Below are positions 1 to 22,267 of a DNA stretch of 23,439 nucleotides, piece by piece. Each line of letters begins with the position of its first letter. Position 1 is the stretch's first letter. This DNA comes from a virus. Its lineage: Duplodnaviria > Heunggongvirae > Uroviricota > Caudoviricetes. Below the pieces are notes generated by a model, which was given only the letters and a program-made list of their open reading frames with translations, was not told where the DNA came from and made no database searches. The position numbers were made by a program, and so were the translations under genes. The stretch spans positions 1 through 23,439 of the IMG/VR virus record IMGVR_UViG_3300045988_013110, one strand, 5' to 3'.

Positions 1-57
1 TGGGAATGATTAACAGCTAACTCATAGCAACTCATTCCTATTCAGATACTAATTTAA

Positions 58-136: not shown

Positions 137-174
137 TGACGGTATTACCTTAAAGGTATACTCTCATACCGTCA
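137..174. promoter_or_regulatory. inverted-repeat cluster upstream of int containing one operator-like site (TTACC-TTAAA-GGTAT, 145-159)
   Basis: TGACGGTAT (137-145) and ATACCGTCA (166-174) form a 9-bp inverted repeat; between them lies a one-mismatch copy of the TTACC-N5-GGTAA motif. Confidence 0.35.
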
Positions 175-2996: not shown

Positions 2997-3914
2997 TTAC
3001 ATAGATGTTTCGTTTAATTCTTCCCGACGAACGCTGTAAACGTCGGTGGCTTTTGCCAGCAGTTCGTCATCATCTGAAAGTTTTTGTGCAATGTATTTGT
3101 AAGCCTTATCCAGTTCGGAGACAGTGCTGTAATTCATCGCTGCGCTGGTAAAGGCCATCAGCACTTCTTCTGGATCACGGCTATCCGCTTTACGCGTTTG
3201 CTCATCATGCTTTTTCACTGGTTTAGCGTTGATCAGACTGTTCATGCTGGATGCTGTGCCGTGCTTTGCCTGACTTCTTGGAGTTACGTCACGTTCAATA
3301 ATGTCAGGTGAGTCGATATATTTACCTTCCATTTCCTCAGCTGTGGCTTGTTGACCAATCTCCGGCCATGCTTTACGTAATGCCTGTGCCTCTGCGCATT
3401 TTGCCAACTGCGCATAAGGGCGCTTTTTCCACATGGCATTTGGTGCCGATGTGTCACGCCCCCCAGTTGCATAGTTCTCAATCCAGTATTCTTTGGCGCT
3501 AAACTCTACGATTTCCCCGCTTGCCATTCGCTTGCTGACGGTGTACTTACACCACTGAGGGAAGGTAACCTCCACGCCTGAAAGCGTTTGTGTTACATCT
3601 GGACCGAACTCAGGTTCATTAGCGCCTGCGTAATCGCCGGAACGGTAGGCCTGAATGCGATAAAGTCCAATGCCAGGCATGACCACGTCGCGCCATTCAT
3701 TCTTTCCACTCTTCGAGTCTTTAACACTCATTGGTACCAGGTGTACCGGCTTAAGAAGAGGATCGAGTTGACGCGCCCGGCAGTAATCGACTGCCATCAT
3801 TACCGATTCATCTTTTGCCCCAGGGTAAATACTGTTTTTCAGAGCGCTCCATGTAACTTCATCGATTCCCCGAATAGCCAACACATCATTGGTGATTGCA
3901 ATTTCGTTGCTCAT
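2997..3914 (-). CDS. RecT/Red-beta family single-strand annealing protein
   Basis: Segments HLVPMSVKDSKSGKNEW and AMWKKRPYAQLAKCAEAQALRKAWPE resemble the RecT family by recollection. ATG 3914 overlaps the exonuclease stop (ATGA). Confidence 0.8.
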   Translation of the reverse strand: MSNEIAITNDVLAIRGIDEVTWSALKNSIYPGAKDESVMMAVDYCRARQLDPLLKPVHLVPMSVKDSKSGKNEWRDVVMPGIGLYRIQAYRSGDYAGANEPEFGPDVTQTLSGVEVTFPQWCKYTVSKRMASGEIVEFSAKEYWIENYATGGRDTSAPNAMWKKRPYAQLAKCAEAQALRKAWPEIGQQATAEEMEGKYIDSPDIIERDVTPRSQAKHGTASSMNSLINAKPVKKHDEQTRKADSRDPEEVLMAFTSAAMNYSTVSELDKAYKYIAQKLSDDDELLAKATDVYSVRREELNETSM

Positions 3915-4732
3915 ACGTACATATCCTGTTTGCGTGCCCACTCAGGGCGTTTAATAATTTCCACGCCGCCCCATTCATCGCTGATGCGGCATTCGTGATA
4001 GGTATTCAGATCCCGGCGGAACAGAGCGTGCCCGGCATCGACATCCGGCGCATCCAGCCCGAACACGCGTACCGGATACCGACCACAATCAATGCTTTCG
4101 CTCACGGCAAGAAAGAAAAAACCATGCGGCTGACCAGTAACCCTCATTGCGCCTTCGCGGTACATTGCGTCCTGCACGTGGTAGCGGAATTCCTCGATGT
4201 GACGTGCAAAACGGTCCATATCTGCAACCTTTTTCACGTCGACGATCACGTTGTGCTCGTTCAGCCATTTGTCTGGACGAATTCGGCACAACTCACCCGT
4301 CTCTTCATCGTTCCAGTACATTGATGCTTCGCAGTAACCAGGTGCTTCCAGCATCCAGCGTGCCGCCGGGTGAGCCATTGCGCTATCACGCATCAGCTCC
4401 AGTTTCCGCCACTGCTCGGCATCAAGTACCGTAATCCCCATATCCGCTACATCACGAAGAAATGCTTCTTCGTCAGCTTTACCTTGTTTCGTCCGACGAT
4501 CGAACTTCGGTGAAACAATGAAGCGTTTGTCGAATTCTCCAGGCTCCAGAAGCAGACAGTGCAATGCGGTTCCCATATCCAGTGCAGACTTTTTCTCTTC
4601 GTCTTCTGGTGCTGCCTGAACCCATTTAAGAAGCGCCGGATTCTTGGCAACCATGTCCAGTTGCGACTTACTCACGCCGTCACCGGCGTGGTAGTCTTCG
4701 TTGCTGATGTCGAAATAAATTCCCGGTTTCAT
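3911..4732 (-). CDS. RecE-type recombination exonuclease (PD-(D/E)XK fold)
   Basis: N-terminal GIYFDISNEDYHAGDGVSKSQL and downstream acidic/Lys residues resemble the RecE C-terminal nuclease domain. Sits directly upstream of the annealase, as in RecET modules. Confidence 0.75.
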   Translation of the reverse strand: MKPGIYFDISNEDYHAGDGVSKSQLDMVAKNPALLKWVQAAPEDEEKKSALDMGTALHCLLLEPGEFDKRFIVSPKFDRRTKQGKADEEAFLRDVADMGITVLDAEQWRKLELMRDSAMAHPAARWMLEAPGYCEASMYWNDEETGELCRIRPDKWLNEHNVIVDVKKVADMDRFARHIEEFRYHVQDAMYREGAMRVTGQPHGFFFLAVSESIDCGRYPVRVFGLDAPDVDAGHALFRRDLNTYHECRISDEWGGVEIIKRPEWARKQDMYV

Positions 4733-5189: not shown

Positions 5190-5279
5190 TTACCTCGGTC
5201 TGTTACCGTTGGGGTAATAATTATGCTTATTTGGTTTGGTGTCAATAGATATGAGTTAAAAAAATTACCCGTAAGGTAA
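5190..5279. promoter_or_regulatory. OL-like operator pair plus half-site upstream of the leftward operon
   Basis: Perfect TTACC-N5-GGTAA at 5203-5217 and 5265-5279 (centres 62 bp apart), plus a TTACC half-site at 5190-5194. Confidence 0.55.
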
Positions 5280-5291
5280 TCTATCTGGCAA

Positions 5292-5315
5292 TAAAAAAGC
5301 CGCCATGAGGCGGCT
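5292..5315 (-). terminator. rho-independent terminator downstream of the repressor gene
   Basis: Stem GCCGCC / GGCGGC with loop ATGA; on the minus strand it is followed by TTTTTT. Confidence 0.6.
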
Positions 5316-5336
5316 TACTTACTGAAAACTATAGTT

Positions 5337-5921
5337 TTATTGTTTGCTTTTTTCGTTCTGGTTGATGACAAATTCAATGTAACTTTCGATCTTTGCTTTC
5401 TCGGTTTCGGGTAACAATGCGTAGCGCGAGCGATCATAGTTGATGGTCGCAGGGTCGTGCGGGTGAATCAGTAATTCATAGCCGTGACGCCCGAATGCGG
5501 ATGCAACATTCTCCAGGGTGGAAATGGAAACGCTGACCTCATTGTTTAACAGGCGACTGATTGTCACCTGGGCGACGCCGGATGCGCGGTGAAGTTTTCC
5601 CTGCGTTGAAAGGTCGCGGCTTTCGCTCATCCAGCGTTCCAGGTTGTGAGCCGCCAGCTGACCAATGTCGCTTGGGCCGACAGGCTGAAAACCTTCCTGA
5701 GAAAGCGAGCGATCGATATCAAGCCAGTTACGGGGTTTATTGGCGGCAGCTTCAATTTTTCGCGCAACCTGGTCGCCGATAACCTTCTTGCCAAGAGCCC
5801 AGCGGTTTACCAGATTTGCCTGAGTTCCAAGTTTTTCTGCCATCCGCGTCTGAACACCATTGAATTCACGGTCGATCAAGTCGTTGAGATTTTGCCTGCG
5901 GACGTCCTGGATACTTTTCAT
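5337..5921 (-). CDS. prophage repressor (CI-like) with two HTH regions and no obvious S24 peptidase domain
   Basis: Two XRE-type HTH stretches (MAEKLGTQANLVNRWALGKK and ASGVAQVTISRLLNNEVSVSISTLENVA). No GDSM-type Ser/Lys autocleavage motif seen. Divergent from a Cro-like gene with operators in between. Confidence 0.7.
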   Translation of the reverse strand: MKSIQDVRRQNLNDLIDREFNGVQTRMAEKLGTQANLVNRWALGKKVIGDQVARKIEAAANKPRNWLDIDRSLSQEGFQPVGPSDIGQLAAHNLERWMSESRDLSTQGKLHRASGVAQVTISRLLNNEVSVSISTLENVASAFGRHGYELLIHPHDPATINYDRSRYALLPETEKAKIESYIEFVINQNEKSKQ

Positions 5922-5976: not shown

Positions 5977-6039
5977 TTACCCAACAGGTAAATGCACCCC
6001 ATAGGTAACTATCCTTGATTTTTGTTACCTTATGGGTGA
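5977..6039. promoter_or_regulatory. OR-like tripartite operator region between the repressor and Cro-like gene
   Basis: TTACC-CAACA-GGTAA (5977-5991), GCACC-CCATA-GGTAA (5994-6008) and TTACC-TTATG-GGTGA (6025-6039) lie in the 154-bp divergent intergenic region. Confidence 0.6.
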
Positions 6040-6075
6040 ATATTTATTATCTGAAATAAATATCAGGCAATAGCT

Positions 6076-6327: not shown

Positions 6328-6351
6328 AGACCGCCATCCGGCGGTCTTTTC
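6328..6351 (+). terminator. rho-independent terminator after the Cro-like gene
   Basis: Stem AGACCGCC / GGCGGTCT with loop ATCC, followed by a short T-run (TTTTC). Confidence 0.5.
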
Positions 6352-6362
6352 ATATCTATTCG

Positions 6363-6377
6363 CACCTAAAAGGTAAC
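6363..6377. promoter_or_regulatory. operator-like site (GCACC-TAAAA-GGTAA) ahead of the replication operon
   Basis: Same left-half variant (GCACC) as the OR site at 5994-6008; lies just downstream of the terminator at 6328-6351. Confidence 0.4.
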
Positions 6378-8301: not shown

Positions 8302-8378
8302 TTACCTGTTGGGTAATAAAATATTCTAAAATCTATTGATTTCGTGTCTTATGTGGTTTTTAATTACCTCAGAGGTAA
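8302..8378. promoter_or_regulatory. operator pair upstream of the middle-gene operon
   Basis: Perfect TTACC-N5-GGTAA at 8302-8316 and 8364-8378, centres 62 bp apart. The proximal site overlaps the Shine-Dalgarno (AGAGG) of the gene starting at 8382. Confidence 0.5.
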
Positions 8379-8381
8379 ATC

Positions 8382-8726
8382 ATGAGAAAACAGATACAGG
8401 CTCTTGGTCGACTCAAAACAGGCCAGATGAACAAAACAGAATCTGCGTATTGCCAGCACCTTGAGCAGCGTAAACGTGCAGGGGAAATCGCTTGGTATCG
8501 ATTCGAGGGTATCAAGCTGCGGTTAGCTGACAACACGTTCTATACGCCCGATTTTGCTGTGATGCTCGCTACCGGCGAGATGGAACTGCACGAAGTGAAA
8601 GGTTTCTGGACCGACGACGCCAGAGTGAAAACAAAAGTCGCCGCAGATCAGTATCCGTTCCGAATAATCGGGGTAACGGTTAAACCAAAGAAAGCAGGTG
8701 GCGGCTGGAACATCGAAGAGTTCTGA
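8382..8726 (+). CDS. hypothetical phage protein (DUF1064-like by recollection)
   Basis: 114-aa ORF; pattern YTPDFAV...HEVKGFWTDDARVKTKVAADQYP. Confidence 0.5.
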   Translation: MRKQIQALGRLKTGQMNKTESAYCQHLEQRKRAGEIAWYRFEGIKLRLADNTFYTPDFAVMLATGEMELHEVKGFWTDDARVKTKVAADQYPFRIIGVTVKPKKAGGGWNIEEF

Positions 8727-10559: not shown

Positions 10560-10645
10560 TGCCGCCAGTTAAAGTTGTGATTATCACTTTGGTGATGATA
10601 GTGATTGCGAGAATCATGTCTGGTGAAGTTTGGTGGATATGGTAA
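10556..10645 (+). CDS. candidate hydrophobic micropeptide (29 aa)
   Basis: ATG overlaps the upstream stop (ATGA); GGA-rich Shine-Dalgarno. Product MMPPVKVVIITLVMIVIARIMSGEVWWIW looks like a single transmembrane helix. Below the ORF-track cutoff. Confidence 0.25.
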   Translation: MMPPVKVVIITLVMIVIARIMSGEVWWIW

Positions 10646-10983
10646 TGGCTAAGGCAGCAGCAGAGCGCAAAGCCGCTCAGAGAGCCAGACAAGCTGCATC
10701 TGGTGTGCGTAAGCTGGAGATTGTGCTTGATGCTCAGGAAATTGAAATGCTGGAGCGTAACTGTGCCACACGTCGCCCCGGGCGTGCGCCTTACGAATTT
10801 GGTGAGTATATAGCGTTACTGATCCGCCAGGATGATGCGCGCGTGCACGGGCGTATAAAATCGATCAGCAGAAAACGTTGCGGTAAGTGCGGCGAGAGAG
10901 TTCCTGTGAATTCATGCCCGTGTAATGGTGACTCGCAATGCTGGGTGACTAAAGGCTGGCATGAAACGAAATTAATATTGTGA
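10630..10983 (+). CDS. hypothetical protein with C-terminal Cys cluster
   Basis: C-terminus RCGKCGERVPVNSCPCNGDSQC; last gene before the terminator that precedes the packaging operon. The start could instead be ATG 10645. Confidence 0.45.
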   Translation: MVDMVMAKAAAERKAAQRARQAASGVRKLEIVLDAQEIEMLERNCATRRPGRAPYEFGEYIALLIRQDDARVHGRIKSISRKRCGKCGERVPVNSCPCNGDSQCWVTKGWHETKLIL

Positions 10984-11066: not shown

Positions 11067-11102
11067 CTATTACCACAACGGTAACTATTACCACGGTGGT
11101 TA
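11067..11102. promoter_or_regulatory. operator-like sites and direct repeat at the packaging-operon entry
   Basis: Perfect TTACC-ACAAC-GGTAA (11070-11084) and imperfect TTACC-ACGGT-GGTTA (11088-11102), within a 10-bp direct repeat CTATTACCAC (11067-11076 and 11085-11094), immediately before the TerS start codon. Confidence 0.45.
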
Positions 11103-13258: not shown

Positions 13259-13606
13259 TTATTTCTTGATAATATTTCCAGACATTGTGCTGGCGTTTCC
13301 ACCAACAGTTTCGCAGATTACATCTCCAGACATGGTGTTTACATTTCCCAATACATTGGAACAATGGACATCACCAGACATAGTTTTCACATAATGTGCA
13401 TCACCGCTTACAGTCACTGATCCATTTTCAATCTCAACACCTTCCACGCTTCCATTAATTGTTACGTTAATCTGTCCGTCAAGATTGCTATTTTTTTCGA
13501 CACCATCAACGATCACTTTTCCATTGTTAATCGTAATATGATGACCAGTGAAGTCTTCTCCGTTGACGCTAACGCTAGCACCACGTACGTTATTGATTTT
13601 AATCAT
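13259..13606 (-). CDS. reverse-strand accessory gene: Gly/Val/Asn-rich beta-helix repeat protein (bactofilin-like)
   Basis: 115 aa; repeated G-x-V/I pattern (ITINNGKVIVDGV..INVTINGSVEGVEIENGSVTVSGD..MSGDVHCSNVLGNVNTMSGDVICETVGGNASTMSGN). Only clear opposite-strand gene in the late region, bracketed by its own terminators. Confidence 0.6.
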   Translation of the reverse strand: MIKINNVRGASVSVNGEDFTGHHITINNGKVIVDGVEKNSNLDGQINVTINGSVEGVEIENGSVTVSGDAHYVKTMSGDVHCSNVLGNVNTMSGDVICETVGGNASTMSGNIIKK

Positions 13607-13714: not shown

Positions 13715-13739
13715 AAAAAAAATGCCCGGCGAACCGGGC
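13715..13739 (-). terminator. rho-independent terminator (minus strand)
   Basis: Stem GCCCGG / CCGGGC with loop CGAA; minus-strand T8 run follows. Confidence 0.6.
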
Positions 13740-13816
13740 GAACTGGAAGCAATGAGTTATGCCTTCCGTGGCTGTACTGGTTTACAGCATGAAGCCATCG
13801 CAATGGCGTCCTGCTG

Positions 13817-13859
13817 TAAAAAGGGCGGTGATAGTCCTTCAAGGGAAACCATCACCGCC
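13817..13859 (-). terminator. candidate terminator downstream of the tRNA
   Basis: 9-bp stem GGCGGTGAT / ATCACCGCC with an 18-nt loop, followed on the minus strand by CTTTTTA. The long loop lowers confidence. Confidence 0.4.
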
Positions 13860-13902
13860 AAGCCCCTGGAACTTCTGGCATCACGGTCCTTAGGCGTGAT
13901 TC

Positions 13903-13979
13903 TGGCGTGGCATGCAGGATTCGAACCTGCGACCAACCGCTTAGAAGGCGGTTGCTCTGTCCAACTGAGCTAATGCCAC
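13903..13979 (-). tRNA. tRNA-Arg (anticodon UCU)
   Basis: Hand-folded 77-nt cloverleaf with CCA: acceptor GTGGCAT/ATGCCAC, D-arm GCTC-AGTTGGACA-GAGC, anticodon stem ACCGC/GCGGT with loop CTTCTAA (anticodon TCT), T-arm GCAGG-TTCGAAT-CCTGC, discriminator G. Confidence 0.85.
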
Positions 13980-14301: not shown

Positions 14302-14316
14302 TTACCTGAAAGGTAA
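14302..14316. promoter_or_regulatory. operator-like site upstream of the virion operon
   Basis: Perfect TTACC-TGAAA-GGTAA; a GGTAA half-site at 14374-14378 sits at the same 62-bp centre offset. Confidence 0.45.
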
Positions 14317-18299: not shown

Positions 18300-18350
18300 C
18301 GCCTGTTATTAACCTGTGGGTCGTAACAGACCCACTAATGGAGAAAGAAG

Positions 18351-19190: not shown

Positions 19191-19796
19191 ATGGCCTCTG
19201 TAGTAGAGATCTGCAATCGTGCGCTGTCCAATATTGGCAACAGCCGCAGTATTAACAGCCTGACGGAAGCCAGCAAGGAAGCAGGGGAATGTTCGCTGCA
19301 CTTTGAGGCCTGCCGTGATGCTGTGCTTTCTGATTTTGACTGGAACTTTGCTACCAAACGCGTGGCGCTTGCAGATACGAGCAATCCACCGCCTGACTGG
19401 GAATATGCGTACCAGTACCCGTCCGATTGTCTGCGCATTACTGAAATTATGCTTCCTGGTGTACGCAATCCAACAGCAGCAATGCGCGTTCAGTACGAAG
19501 TTGGTGCAGACACCAACGGAACAGGAAAGTTGATCTACACAGACCAGCCGCAGGCATGGCTCAAGTATGTATCTCGCGTTTCAGATGTAAACATGTTTGA
19601 TGCCATTTTTATGGAGGCGCTGGCCTGGCGTCTTGCGGCAGCCATTAACATGGCGCTGACTGGGAATGCGGATCTCGGTACATTTGCTCTCAATATGTAC
19701 AATCGCGTGATTCTTAGTGCTGGCTCGCATAGCCAGAATGAATCACAGGAACCACAGCCACCGGTTGACGAGTTTACCATTGCGAGGTTGTCCTGA
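19191..19796 (+). CDS. tail tubular protein A-like (T7 gp11-like)
   Basis: 201 aa; N-terminal pattern VVEICNRALSNIGNSRSINSL is similar to the gp11 N-terminus by recollection; size and position before the gp12-like gene fit. Confidence 0.55.
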   Translation: MASVVEICNRALSNIGNSRSINSLTEASKEAGECSLHFEACRDAVLSDFDWNFATKRVALADTSNPPPDWEYAYQYPSDCLRITEIMLPGVRNPTAAMRVQYEVGADTNGTGKLIYTDQPQAWLKYVSRVSDVNMFDAIFMEALAWRLAAAINMALTGNADLGTFALNMYNRVILSAGSHSQNESQEPQPPVDEFTIARLS

Positions 19797-22267
19797 TGGC
19801 TATCAGTTGGATCCAGCCCAGCTTTGCCGGTGGTGAGATTGGACCGTCGTTGTACGGGCGTATTGACATGGCGAAGTACCAGGTGGCATTGCGCAAGTGC
19901 GATAACTTTATCGTGCGGCAGTATGGCGGCGTTGAGAATCGACCAGGTACGCGTTTTGTCGGTGCCGCCAAATACCCAAATCGGAAATGCCGCCTGATCC
20001 CGTTCCAGTTCTCGACGGTTCAGACCTATGCTCTGGAGTTCGGACACCAGTACATGCGCGTTATCAAAGATGGTGCGTTGGTGCTGAACAGCAGCAATGT
20101 TATTTATGAAATTGCCACGCCATATACTGAAGCCGATCTGTTCCGAATTAAATTCACGCAAAGCGCCGACGTGCTTACGCTTGTTCATCCGGCATACCCG
20201 CCGAAAGAGTTGCGTCGCTATGCGCATGACAACTGGCAACTGGTTGATGTGGTAACGAAGAACGGACCATTTGAAGATATCAATATTGACGAGTCAGTGA
20301 CGGTTTATGCCAGCGCCAGCACCGGGACAATTACGTTAACGGCAAGCGCCTCTATTTTTGGCGCGGAGCAGGTAGGCAAATTGTTCTATCTGGAACAGCC
20401 TGCAGTGGATTCTGTGCCGGTATGGGAAACCAGTAAGAGTACGTCAATTGGCGATATTCGCCGTGCAGACAGTAACTACTATCGCGCCGTTACAGTAGGC
20501 AAAACAGGCACTTTGCGCCCTTCGCATACAGAAGGCACATCATGGGATGGCTGGGGCGGATCCGGTGATGATGATACCGGCATTGAGTGGGAGTATCTGC
20601 ACAGTGGTTTTGGCATTGCCCGTATCTCTGCTGCAAATGGAACTACTGCAACTGCCGAGGTGATTTCCTATATCCCTTCGCAGGTAGTTGGCGAGGATAA
20701 TGCCAGCTATAAATGGGCTAAATATGCCTGGAACAGTGTTAATGGTTATCCTGGCACTGTTGTTTATTATCAACAACGTCTTTACTTCGCCGCATCGACT
20801 GCGTTTCCTCAGACTATCTGGGCCAGCCGTACCGGGGATTATAAGGATTTTGGCAAAAGCAATCCTACGCAGGATGACGACAGAATTATCTACACCTATG
20901 CCGGGCGTCAGGTTAATGAGATCCGCCACCTGATTGATGTTGGTTCGCTGGTGGCGCTGACTTCCGGAGGTGAGTACGTCATCACTGGCGACCAGAACAA
21001 AGTGCTTACCCCATCATCATTTGCATTCAGCTCTCAGGGATCAAATGGCTCGAGCAATGTCCCACCAATTGCCGTGGCGAATATTGCTCTGTTCGTCCAG
21101 GAGAAAGGCAGTGTTGTCCGTGATCTGGCCTACTCATTCGATGTTGACGGCTATCAGGGGAACGACCTTACTATCCTTGCCAATCATCTTTTTCAGAAGC
21201 ACAGCATTGTTGACTGGTGCTTCTCAATAGTCCCTTACTCCAGCGCCTTCTGCATCCGTGATGACGGTAAATTACTGGTGATGACCTATTTGCGTGATCA
21301 GCAGGTTTTTGCATGGGCACCACAATCCAGTACCGGAAAATATGAAAGCACATGCAGTATCAGCGAAGGCAATGAAGATGCGGTGTATTTCGTCGTTAAC
21401 CGAACCGTTAACGGGCAAACAGTGAGATACATCGAGCGACTGTCCAGCCGTTTATTTACCAGCGATGAAGATGCTTTCTTTGTTGATTCTGGCCTTAGCT
21501 ATGATGGAAGAAATACGTCTGACAGAACGATGATCATCACTGGTGGTTCTGGCGAATGGGATTACCGCGCGGAATATACAATCAGTGTTTCTGGTGGTGC
21601 GTACTTCACCAGTAGTGATGTCGGCGCGCAACTACAGTTCCCTTATACCGGAACTGATCCTGATACTGGCGATGAGGTGTCAAAAGAATTACGTTGCGAC
21701 ATTATTTCTGTAACCAGCAATACCGCTGTAGTGGTTCGTGCTAACAGGAACGTCCCGCCATCCCTCAGGAATGTGGCCACCACGAACTGGCAGATGGCGC
21801 GCCGGACATTTGGAGGCCTGTCTCATCTTGAAGGCCAGACCGTAAACATTCTCTCTGATGCGAACGTGGAACCACAGAAAGTTGTTTCCGGAGGTGCCGT
21901 CACGCTGGAATCTCCGGGGGCTGTTGTGCACATCGGCCTGCCAATAACTGCTGAATTCGAAACACTGGATATCAACATTAACGGACAGGAAACGCTGCTG
22001 GACAAAAAACAGGTGATCCCCTCCGTTACTCTGGTTGTGAATGCCAGTCGCGGCATCTGGGCGACTACGCCCGGCGGCAAATGGTACGAATATCCACAGC
22101 GTGAATTCGAGTTCTACGATGATCCTGTTGATGATGCTACCGGAAAAGTAGAAGTGAAACTGGACAGTAACTGGGGCAAAAACGGACGTGTAAAAATCCG
22201 TCAGCTTGATCCGTTGCCGCTGTCTGTTCTTGCCGTTATTCCTCGCCTTACTGTTGGTGGGTTCTGA
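19796..22267 (+). CDS. tail tubular protein B-like (T7 gp12-like)
   Basis: 823 aa; N-terminal ISWIQPSFAGGEIGPSLYGRI...GVENRPGTRFV resembles gp12 by recollection; start overlaps the upstream stop (TGATG). Confidence 0.6.
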   Translation: MAISWIQPSFAGGEIGPSLYGRIDMAKYQVALRKCDNFIVRQYGGVENRPGTRFVGAAKYPNRKCRLIPFQFSTVQTYALEFGHQYMRVIKDGALVLNSSNVIYEIATPYTEADLFRIKFTQSADVLTLVHPAYPPKELRRYAHDNWQLVDVVTKNGPFEDINIDESVTVYASASTGTITLTASASIFGAEQVGKLFYLEQPAVDSVPVWETSKSTSIGDIRRADSNYYRAVTVGKTGTLRPSHTEGTSWDGWGGSGDDDTGIEWEYLHSGFGIARISAANGTTATAEVISYIPSQVVGEDNASYKWAKYAWNSVNGYPGTVVYYQQRLYFAASTAFPQTIWASRTGDYKDFGKSNPTQDDDRIIYTYAGRQVNEIRHLIDVGSLVALTSGGEYVITGDQNKVLTPSSFAFSSQGSNGSSNVPPIAVANIALFVQEKGSVVRDLAYSFDVDGYQGNDLTILANHLFQKHSIVDWCFSIVPYSSAFCIRDDGKLLVMTYLRDQQVFAWAPQSSTGKYESTCSISEGNEDAVYFVVNRTVNGQTVRYIERLSSRLFTSDEDAFFVDSGLSYDGRNTSDRTMIITGGSGEWDYRAEYTISVSGGAYFTSSDVGAQLQFPYTGTDPDTGDEVSKELRCDIISVTSNTAVVVRANRNVPPSLRNVATTNWQMARRTFGGLSHLEGQTVNILSDANVEPQKVVSGGAVTLESPGAVVHIGLPITAEFETLDININGQETLLDKKQVIPSVTLVVNASRGIWATTPGGKWYEYPQREFEFYDDPVDDATGKVEVKLDSNWGKNGRVKIRQLDPLPLSVLAVIPRLTVGGF

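Follow-up and report, generated by a model that had tools for sequence, protein, structure and literature searches.

The stretch of DNA analysed here, called the window in the following, is 23,439 nt long and aligns at 97-98% identity with podophages of the phiV10 type (Uetakevirus, epsilon15 group) and with prophages of many E. coli chromosomes. Judged by these alignments, the window covers roughly the leftmost 23 kb of a ~40-kb Uetakevirus prophage similar to phiV10, integrated at the 3' end of guaA. The integrase gene int is followed by a leftward early operon (methylase, PerC, AlpA, RecT, RecE-like), by rep and by a divergent cro-like gene, beyond which come genes for replication, terminase, portal, capsid and part of the tail and ejection functions. 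The right end of the window corresponds to about 12.6 kb in phiV10 coordinates and stops short of the tailspike region. Within the early operon, RecT and the RecE-like PD-(D/E)XK nuclease are encoded by separate overlapping ORFs at 2997-3941 (-) and 3911-4732 (-), as they also are in the prophage of E. coli SY033; for phiV10 the counterpart is annotated as a single RecE-RecT fusion CDS (PhiV10p37). The features on which the analysis is built are collected in Table 1.

Table 1. Features of the window around the repressor gene and sites of the palindrome TTACC-N5-GGTAA, in window positions
Feature	Position	Strand	Remarks
att core end (attgagTGGGAATGATT)	1-11		3' end of guaA; left prophage junction
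Palindrome, 1 mismatch, 5' of int	145..159		Identical site 5' of int in phiV10 and SPC32H
Integrase gene (int)	starts at 202		Follows att end
Perfect palindrome pair, 62 bp apart	5203-5217, 5265-5279		Brackets leftward promoter TTGACA-17-AATTAT (5245 to 5217), just downstream of rep
Terminator-like hairpin directly 3' of rep	5297..5316	(-)	8-bp stem with 6 GC pairs, then T-run
rep, predicted lysogeny repressor, 194 aa	5337..5921	(-)	SPC32H Rep / phiV10p40 / epsilon15 gp38 family; ATG-to-stop ORF, stop included
Rep C-terminal module, aa 148-194	5340..5480	(-)	Predicted equivalent of SPC32H CAD ('TetDloop'); aligns with 5D4Z/5D50 through residue 190
Rep middle domain, aa 85-147	5481..5669	(-)	Second XRE/HTH_3-like fold; five helices in AF2 model
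Rep N-terminal domain, aa 1-72	5706..5921	(-)	Cro/CI-type HTH; predicted helices 24-31 and 35-43 (AF2)
rep/cro-like intergenic palindromes	5977-5991, 5994-6008, 6025-6039		Perfect; 2 mismatches; 1 mismatch
cro-like gene, 76 aa	6076..6306	(+)	phrog_35 'transcriptional repressor', E=5.6e-13; syntenic with phiV10p41 and SPC32H_042
Terminator after cro-like gene	6328-6347		
Degenerate palindrome, 2 mismatches, after cro-like terminator	6362..6376		1-mismatch copy at the same place in phiV10 (33112)
Second perfect palindrome pair, 62 bp apart	8302-8316, 8364-8378		Just 5' of DUF1064 gene at 8382
Adjacent palindromes, perfect and 1 mismatch	11070-11084, 11088-11102		Inside 5' end of small-terminase gene terS
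Perfect palindrome 5' of head/tail (late) operon	14302..14316		Kept in phiV10 (3252) and SPC32H (3175)

The product of rep (Rep) is 100% identical to RefSeq entry WP_000836293.1 from E. coli SY033 and 99.5% identical to each of PhiV10p40 of phiV10 and ORF21 of vB_EcoP_ZX5. Searched against the PDB, it matched the Rep protein of phage SPC32H (5D50_A, 'Repressor') with E=3.5e-42, residues 1-190 aligning onto 2-197, and the C-terminal fragment of SPC32H Rep (5D4Z) with E=3.6e-20. BLASTP gave 43% identity between the two repressors (E=1e-53), and the homology extends over the full length of the protein. Entry 5D50 is the complex of SPC32H Rep with its antirepressor Ant; the Rep/Ant lytic switch of this Salmonella phage is the subject of Kim & Ryu (2013, J Virol) and Kim et al. 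(2016, PNAS). The orthologue is annotated 'repressor' in epsilon15 and SPC32H, and the GenBank note on PhiV10p40 reads 'two helix-turn-helix motifs (PF01381); similar to putative repressor epsilon15p38'. The RefSeq label for proteins of the WP_000836293.1 type is only 'helix-turn-helix domain-containing protein'.

The position of rep is that of a classical immunity gene, as it is divergent from the cro-like gene with operator-like palindromes in between, and this arrangement is syntenic with SPC32H_041/042. For phiV10 a terminator is annotated at the position equivalent to the hairpin found 3' of rep in the window. In ZX5, overexpression of ORF21 abolished free phage, and transcripts for holin and endolysin fell by more than 99.9%.

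Further we wanted to describe the domain architecture of Rep. Pfam matched HTH_3 (PF01381) to two stretches of the protein (E=1.2e-9; 38.5 bits, cut-off 23), with residues 106-147 matching best, and the N-terminal HTH (about residues 20-61) gave sub-threshold YdaS_toxin and DUF739 Cro/CI-type matches as well. Residues 1-72 form the best-conserved part of the protein; they are basic (pI 10.3) and contain the motif NLVNRW, which is invariant (N36, R40, W41). This N-terminal HTH is the probable DNA-binding domain. The middle domain is neutral (pI 7.0) and, at 30% identity to SPC32H Rep, the most diverged part, and the C-terminal module is 51% identical to that of SPC32H. A later structural paper assigns DNA binding to the N-terminal domain of SPC32H Rep (DBD), dimerisation to its middle domain (MDD) and tetramerisation to a p53-like domain at the C-terminus (CAD, 'TetDloop'), and describes the CAD as doubling as the Ant-binding site.

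An AlphaFold2 (AF2) model of Rep was built on 36 homologues and has a mean pLDDT of 79.5. Its N-terminal domain (4-59) is helical, the linker (75-83) is modelled with low confidence, the middle domain (85-151) comprises five helices, and a long helix follows at the C-terminus; in this monomer model the tetramerisation motif lacks its strand, and pLDDT is below 50 at residues 157-162. When the model was compared with the PDB by Foldseek the best matches were 5D50 and 5D4Z, and its C-terminal half, that is the middle domain and the C-terminal module, superimposed on 5D4Z with a target TM-score of 0.78 and an rmsd of 3.0 A. The three-part layout of SPC32H Rep was found in Rep by the model as well as by alignment. 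The initial annotation had claimed two XRE-type HTH stretches, and the second of them is indeed genuine at the profile level, but its XRE fold is most likely reused for dimerisation as the equivalent of the SPC32H MDD. By the same comparison the C-terminal module is the predicted equivalent of the tetramerisation and Ant-binding part, and not a peptidase.

Rep was also claimed to lack the S24 peptidase domain and the GDSM motif of self-cleaving repressors, and this claim held in every search. Pfam gave no match of Rep to Peptidase_S24 at E<=10, and when 36 relatives were scanned at E<=1 the family was not among the 25 most-matched Pfam families, the top matches being HTH families only. A precomputed S24 domain is recorded for none of 86 database homologues; about 78 of these are full-length, with 190-235 aa. 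The 194 residues of Rep, read through directly, contain no cysteine, no G[DNS]SM and neither an AG nor a GG dipeptide; as there is neither an AG dipeptide nor a cysteine, Rep therefore has no Ala-Gly or Cys-Gly cleavage site. The 47 residues that follow the second HTH are too few for an S24 domain, and among the structural matches of the AF2 model there was no peptidase or S24 fold. Both features that define the autocleaving LexA/lambda-CI family, the S24 domain on the one side and a cleavage site with a Ser/Lys dyad motif on the other, are absent from Rep. Rep thus has no protease domain and, by homology to SPC32H Rep, would not be inactivated by RecA-stimulated self-cleavage.

The initial annotation saw no antirepressor gene in the window, and our own searches agree. 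With the phiV10 Ant homologue as query tblastn found no match in the window at E<=10, with a Bro-N protein it found chance-level matches only (best E=0.29), and none of the ten uncharacterised window ORFs matched an antirepressor PHROG. The ORFs at 13259-13606 (-) and 13722-13973 (+) were considered as ant and rejected, as they match neither Ant nor any other meaningful PDB entry. LexA boxes were searched for in the window as CTGT-N8-ACAG with <=1 mismatch, which gave 6 sites against 8.6 expected. Two of the sites are perfect, 13772-13787 (CTGTACTGGTTTACAG) and 18314-18329 (CTGTGGGTCGTAACAG), a number not above chance; their spacers are not AT-rich, and they are probably not LexA sites.

In relatives of the window, an antirepressor gene is found. 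The 85-aa product of phiV10p24, annotated 'hypothetical protein', matches chain 5D50_E ('Anti-repressor protein') with E=2.9e-46 and is about 88% identical to SPC32H Ant. The SY033 prophage, which has a Rep 100% identical to that of the window, carries the same 85-aa ant gene. The gene is divergent from the tailspike gene, which in the SY033 prophage places it ~13 kb beyond the point matching the window end; it is because ant lies beyond this end that none was noticed at first and none was found by tblastn. About 20 bp before the ant ATG there is a canonical LexA box in phiV10 (TACTGTGTATTTATACAGTT) and in SY033 (TACTGTATAAACATACAGTT), at the position that the box of SPC32H (TACTGTATGTTTATACAGTG) occupies, and the upstream regions of all three align. 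Ant was found in 35 of the 36 phage records with a full-length Rep homologue, the one Rep-bearing record with no Ant match being BP9. Among 5426 complete E. coli genomes rep is present in 537 and ant in 529. From these relatives we assume that this particular prophage would carry ant with an intact LexA box. The LexA-boxed ant of phiV10 and SY033 and the homology to SPC32H speak for the earlier suggestion that induction depends on an antirepressor that is encoded elsewhere and possibly LexA-controlled; induction of this kind is textbook for this phage group and not new.

A gene with a Bro-N domain lies beside ant in phiV10 (19646-20230 (-)) and in L002 (34797-35507 (-)). As its C-terminal region resembles Ant, phiV10-like phages may carry two Ant-type modules; SPC32H has only the small one.

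To look for candidate operators we made an unbiased search for over-represented palindromes, which resulted in a single clear winner, TTACC-N5-GGTAA. The window contains 7 perfect copies against 0.02 expected, and 10 copies against 0.43 expected at <=1 mismatch, most of them in promoter or intergenic regions. Downstream of rep, the stretch 5203..5279 probably holds the left operator together with the promoter from which the early-left operon is read, and its paired layout is seen in SPC32H too. Between rep and the cro-like gene, a rightward promoter lies at 6022-6050, and the rightmost copy overlaps its -35 element; the equivalent cluster of SPC32H has three sites, at 34390, 34407 and 34437. 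The pair inside terS is kept in phiV10 (87 and 105) and SPC32H (12 and 30). More generally, the palindrome occurs at syntenic places in phiV10, SPC32H and the Klebsiella Uetakevirus BUCT711, the ant/tailspike intergenic region included, and in phiV10 and SPC32H also at the lysis operon. In a covariation comparison that included SPC32H and the Klebsiella Uetakevirus, the operator motif and the recognition helix of Rep were both invariant across the genus.

From their positions, the TTACC-N5-GGTAA sites are probably operators of Rep, as opposed to those of the cro-like protein or another regulator, and the paired copies would suit a tetramer, in which the DNA-binding domains form two pairs. As a tentative extension, with the odds against it, we speculate that all sites are Rep operators, so that one tetrameric Rep would silence every transcription unit directly; the Bro-N/Ant-like fusion may moreover provide phiV10-like phages with a second, SOS-independent route of induction. 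Were all palindromes Rep operators, ant would be locked doubly, by LexA and by Rep, and phages with Reps ~43% identical might share immunity specificity. This reach of Rep over all units may be the one part not found in the literature.

The switch mechanism we propose follows the SPC32H system. SPC32H Rep reportedly stays uncleaved in the SOS response, and a LexA site is said to overlap the ant promoter. Reviews ascribe induction of the SPC32H type to LexA-controlled synthesis of Ant and not to repressor cleavage, and secondary sources describe SPC32H Rep as bound to DNA as a tetramer, which is broken when two Rep dimers are bound by an Ant tetramer. It is for SPC32H Rep alone, 43% identical to the window Rep, that binding to Ant, assembly into tetramers and resistance to RecA-dependent cleavage have been demonstrated.

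Transferred to the window, Rep would act as an oligomer in which the N-terminal HTH contacts DNA, the XRE-like domain dimerises and the C-terminal module both tetramerises and offers the docking site for Ant. Its operators would be the 15-bp palindromes TTACC-N5-GGTAA on the early-left and early-right promoters and before most other units. After DNA damage the host LexA would be inactivated and the small ant gene (85 aa, outside the window) derepressed, as we infer from the relatives. Tetrameric Ant would then bind the C-terminal domains of Rep dimers, the DNA-binding tetramer would be broken up, and the lytic promoters would be released. Altogether we hold the ORF at 5337-5921 to be an SPC32H-type antirepressor-controlled lysogeny repressor of a phiV10/epsilon15-like prophage, with a probability of about 0.88. 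The repressor type as such is already known biology, as near-identical proteins are annotated, partly tested and common in E. coli.

Three other explanations were weighed. Rep could be inactivated mainly by another antirepressor or trigger, either the Bro-N protein beside ant or a non-SOS signal, with the small Ant being secondary. In favour of the Bro-N protein, phiV10p23 has, next to its Bro-N domain (E=1.6e-21), a C-terminal region 40-48% identical to Ant over ~75 residues, and the 'anti-repressor' tested in ZX5 (ORF4) is this Bro-N protein; when it was overexpressed, titres of the prophage dropped from 1e9 to 1e6 and rep transcripts decreased by 75%. Lysogens of ZX5 also release 1e7 PFU/mL spontaneously. 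However, the ORF4 result comes from overexpression only, and the small Ant shares 88% identity with the Ant crystallised from SPC32H, with the LexA box kept at the same position. Moreover, SPC32H has no Bro-N gene beside ant, and Bro-N is therefore dispensable for the switch in SPC32H. We consider it improbable that the small Ant plays the secondary part.

That Rep is RecA-sensitive after all and cleaves itself through a cryptic non-S24 catalytic site can appeal to the cleavage known for most lambdoid CI repressors as a general precedent, but to nothing in the sequence. It would have to be reconciled with the lack of an S24 domain in Rep and among the precomputed Pfam domains of 86 relatives, with the missing AG/CG site and GDSM motif, and also with the fact that the whole chain of Rep consists of three domains that align to the solved SPC32H Rep, the induction of which is attributed to Ant binding. 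We find this account very hard to believe. Just as implausible is the possibility that the ORF encodes an accessory XRE regulator or an antitoxin (HigA- or VapI-like) and not the master repressor. One record does label the identical gene 'plasmid maintenance system antidote protein VapI', and HigA antitoxins are among the weaker structural matches (E about 0.1-0.3), but no toxin partner gene adjoins rep, which is divergent from a cro-like gene and has operator-like palindromes over both early promoters. The SPC32H orthologue is a characterised repressor, and overexpression of the ZX5 protein, 99.5% identical to Rep, switches lytic transcription off.

Of the known systems, SPC32H Rep/Ant shares with the window the genus Uetakevirus, the position and orientation of rep, the three-part layout of Rep, the lack of an S24 domain and the palindromes at syntenic sites, and in relatives that have this Rep, Ant is 88% identical to that of SPC32H, with the LexA box in the same position. 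The two differ in that the window Rep has diverged, chiefly in the middle domain (30% identity) and the linker, in the host (Salmonella for SPC32H, E. coli here), in the left operator region, which has three sites in SPC32H and two in the window, and in the Bro-N/Ant-like fusion gene that phiV10-like phages add beside ant. The repressors of phiV10 and ZX5 show essentially no difference from the window Rep at the protein level and are embedded in DNA that is 97-98% identical; the ZX5 study differs in having tested the Bro-N protein as 'anti-repressor' and not the small Ant.

A repressor that has no cleavage domain and is inactivated when a small LexA-repressed antirepressor binds it, the gene of which lies away from the immunity region, is also seen for GfoR, GtgR and GfhR of Gifsy-1/-2/-3 (Lemire et al. 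2011) and for CI/Tum of coliphage 186. The Gifsy repressors, however, belong to other protein families; at about 136-150 aa against 194 they are shorter than Rep, and in place of its three domains they have one, which resembles the lambda CI N-terminal domain. Their antirepressors are not related to Ant. The likeness is one of analogy and not of membership. Rep resembles lambda CI, P22 C2 and LexA as an N-terminal HTH repressor, divergent from cro, with palindromic operators over the early promoters. In contrast to them it has no S24 domain, Ala-Gly site or Ser/Lys dyad, and its oligomerisation would proceed by the XRE-like domain and the p53-like tetramerisation motif. The combination of an N-terminal HTH with a C-terminal strand-helix tetramerisation motif is found in Rco of the Bacillus plasmid pLS20, which together with the p53 tetramerisation domain represents the 'TetDloop' fold class, to which SPC32H Rep has been assigned. 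Rco differs in that it has no middle dimerisation domain, loops DNA by means of several tetramers and controls a conjugative plasmid.

About one in ten complete E. coli genomes (10%) carries rep, and these genes can be annotated as SPC32H-type antirepressor-controlled prophage repressors. We predict that the guaA prophages are SOS-inducible via LexA and Ant and not via repressor cleavage, which is of relevance for induction by antibiotics and for possible cross-talk among co-resident prophages; otherwise the finding matters little beyond correct annotation.

Some further features of the window lie outside the immunity region. Just 5' of terS, a 117-aa ORF at 10630-10983 (+) matches phrog_536 'transcriptional regulator' with E=3e-54 and no Pfam family; it is the counterpart of phiV10p55 and possibly regulates the late genes. 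A tRNA-Arg (anticodon TCT) at 13903-13979 (-) separates the genes for large terminase and portal, as it does in SPC32H, ZX5 and the SY033 prophage, and the ORF at 13722-13973 (+), which largely overlaps the tRNA on the opposite strand, is probably not a gene. Also between terminase and portal is a moron ORF of 115 aa at 13259-13606 (-), which belongs to phrog_3163 (function not known) and equals phiV10p03, annotated as 'similar to Sf6 gene 66'. Its product is repetitive and rich in Gly, Val and Asn, with a weak bactofilin-like match (E=0.29), and in related prophages a different ORF is found at the same position.
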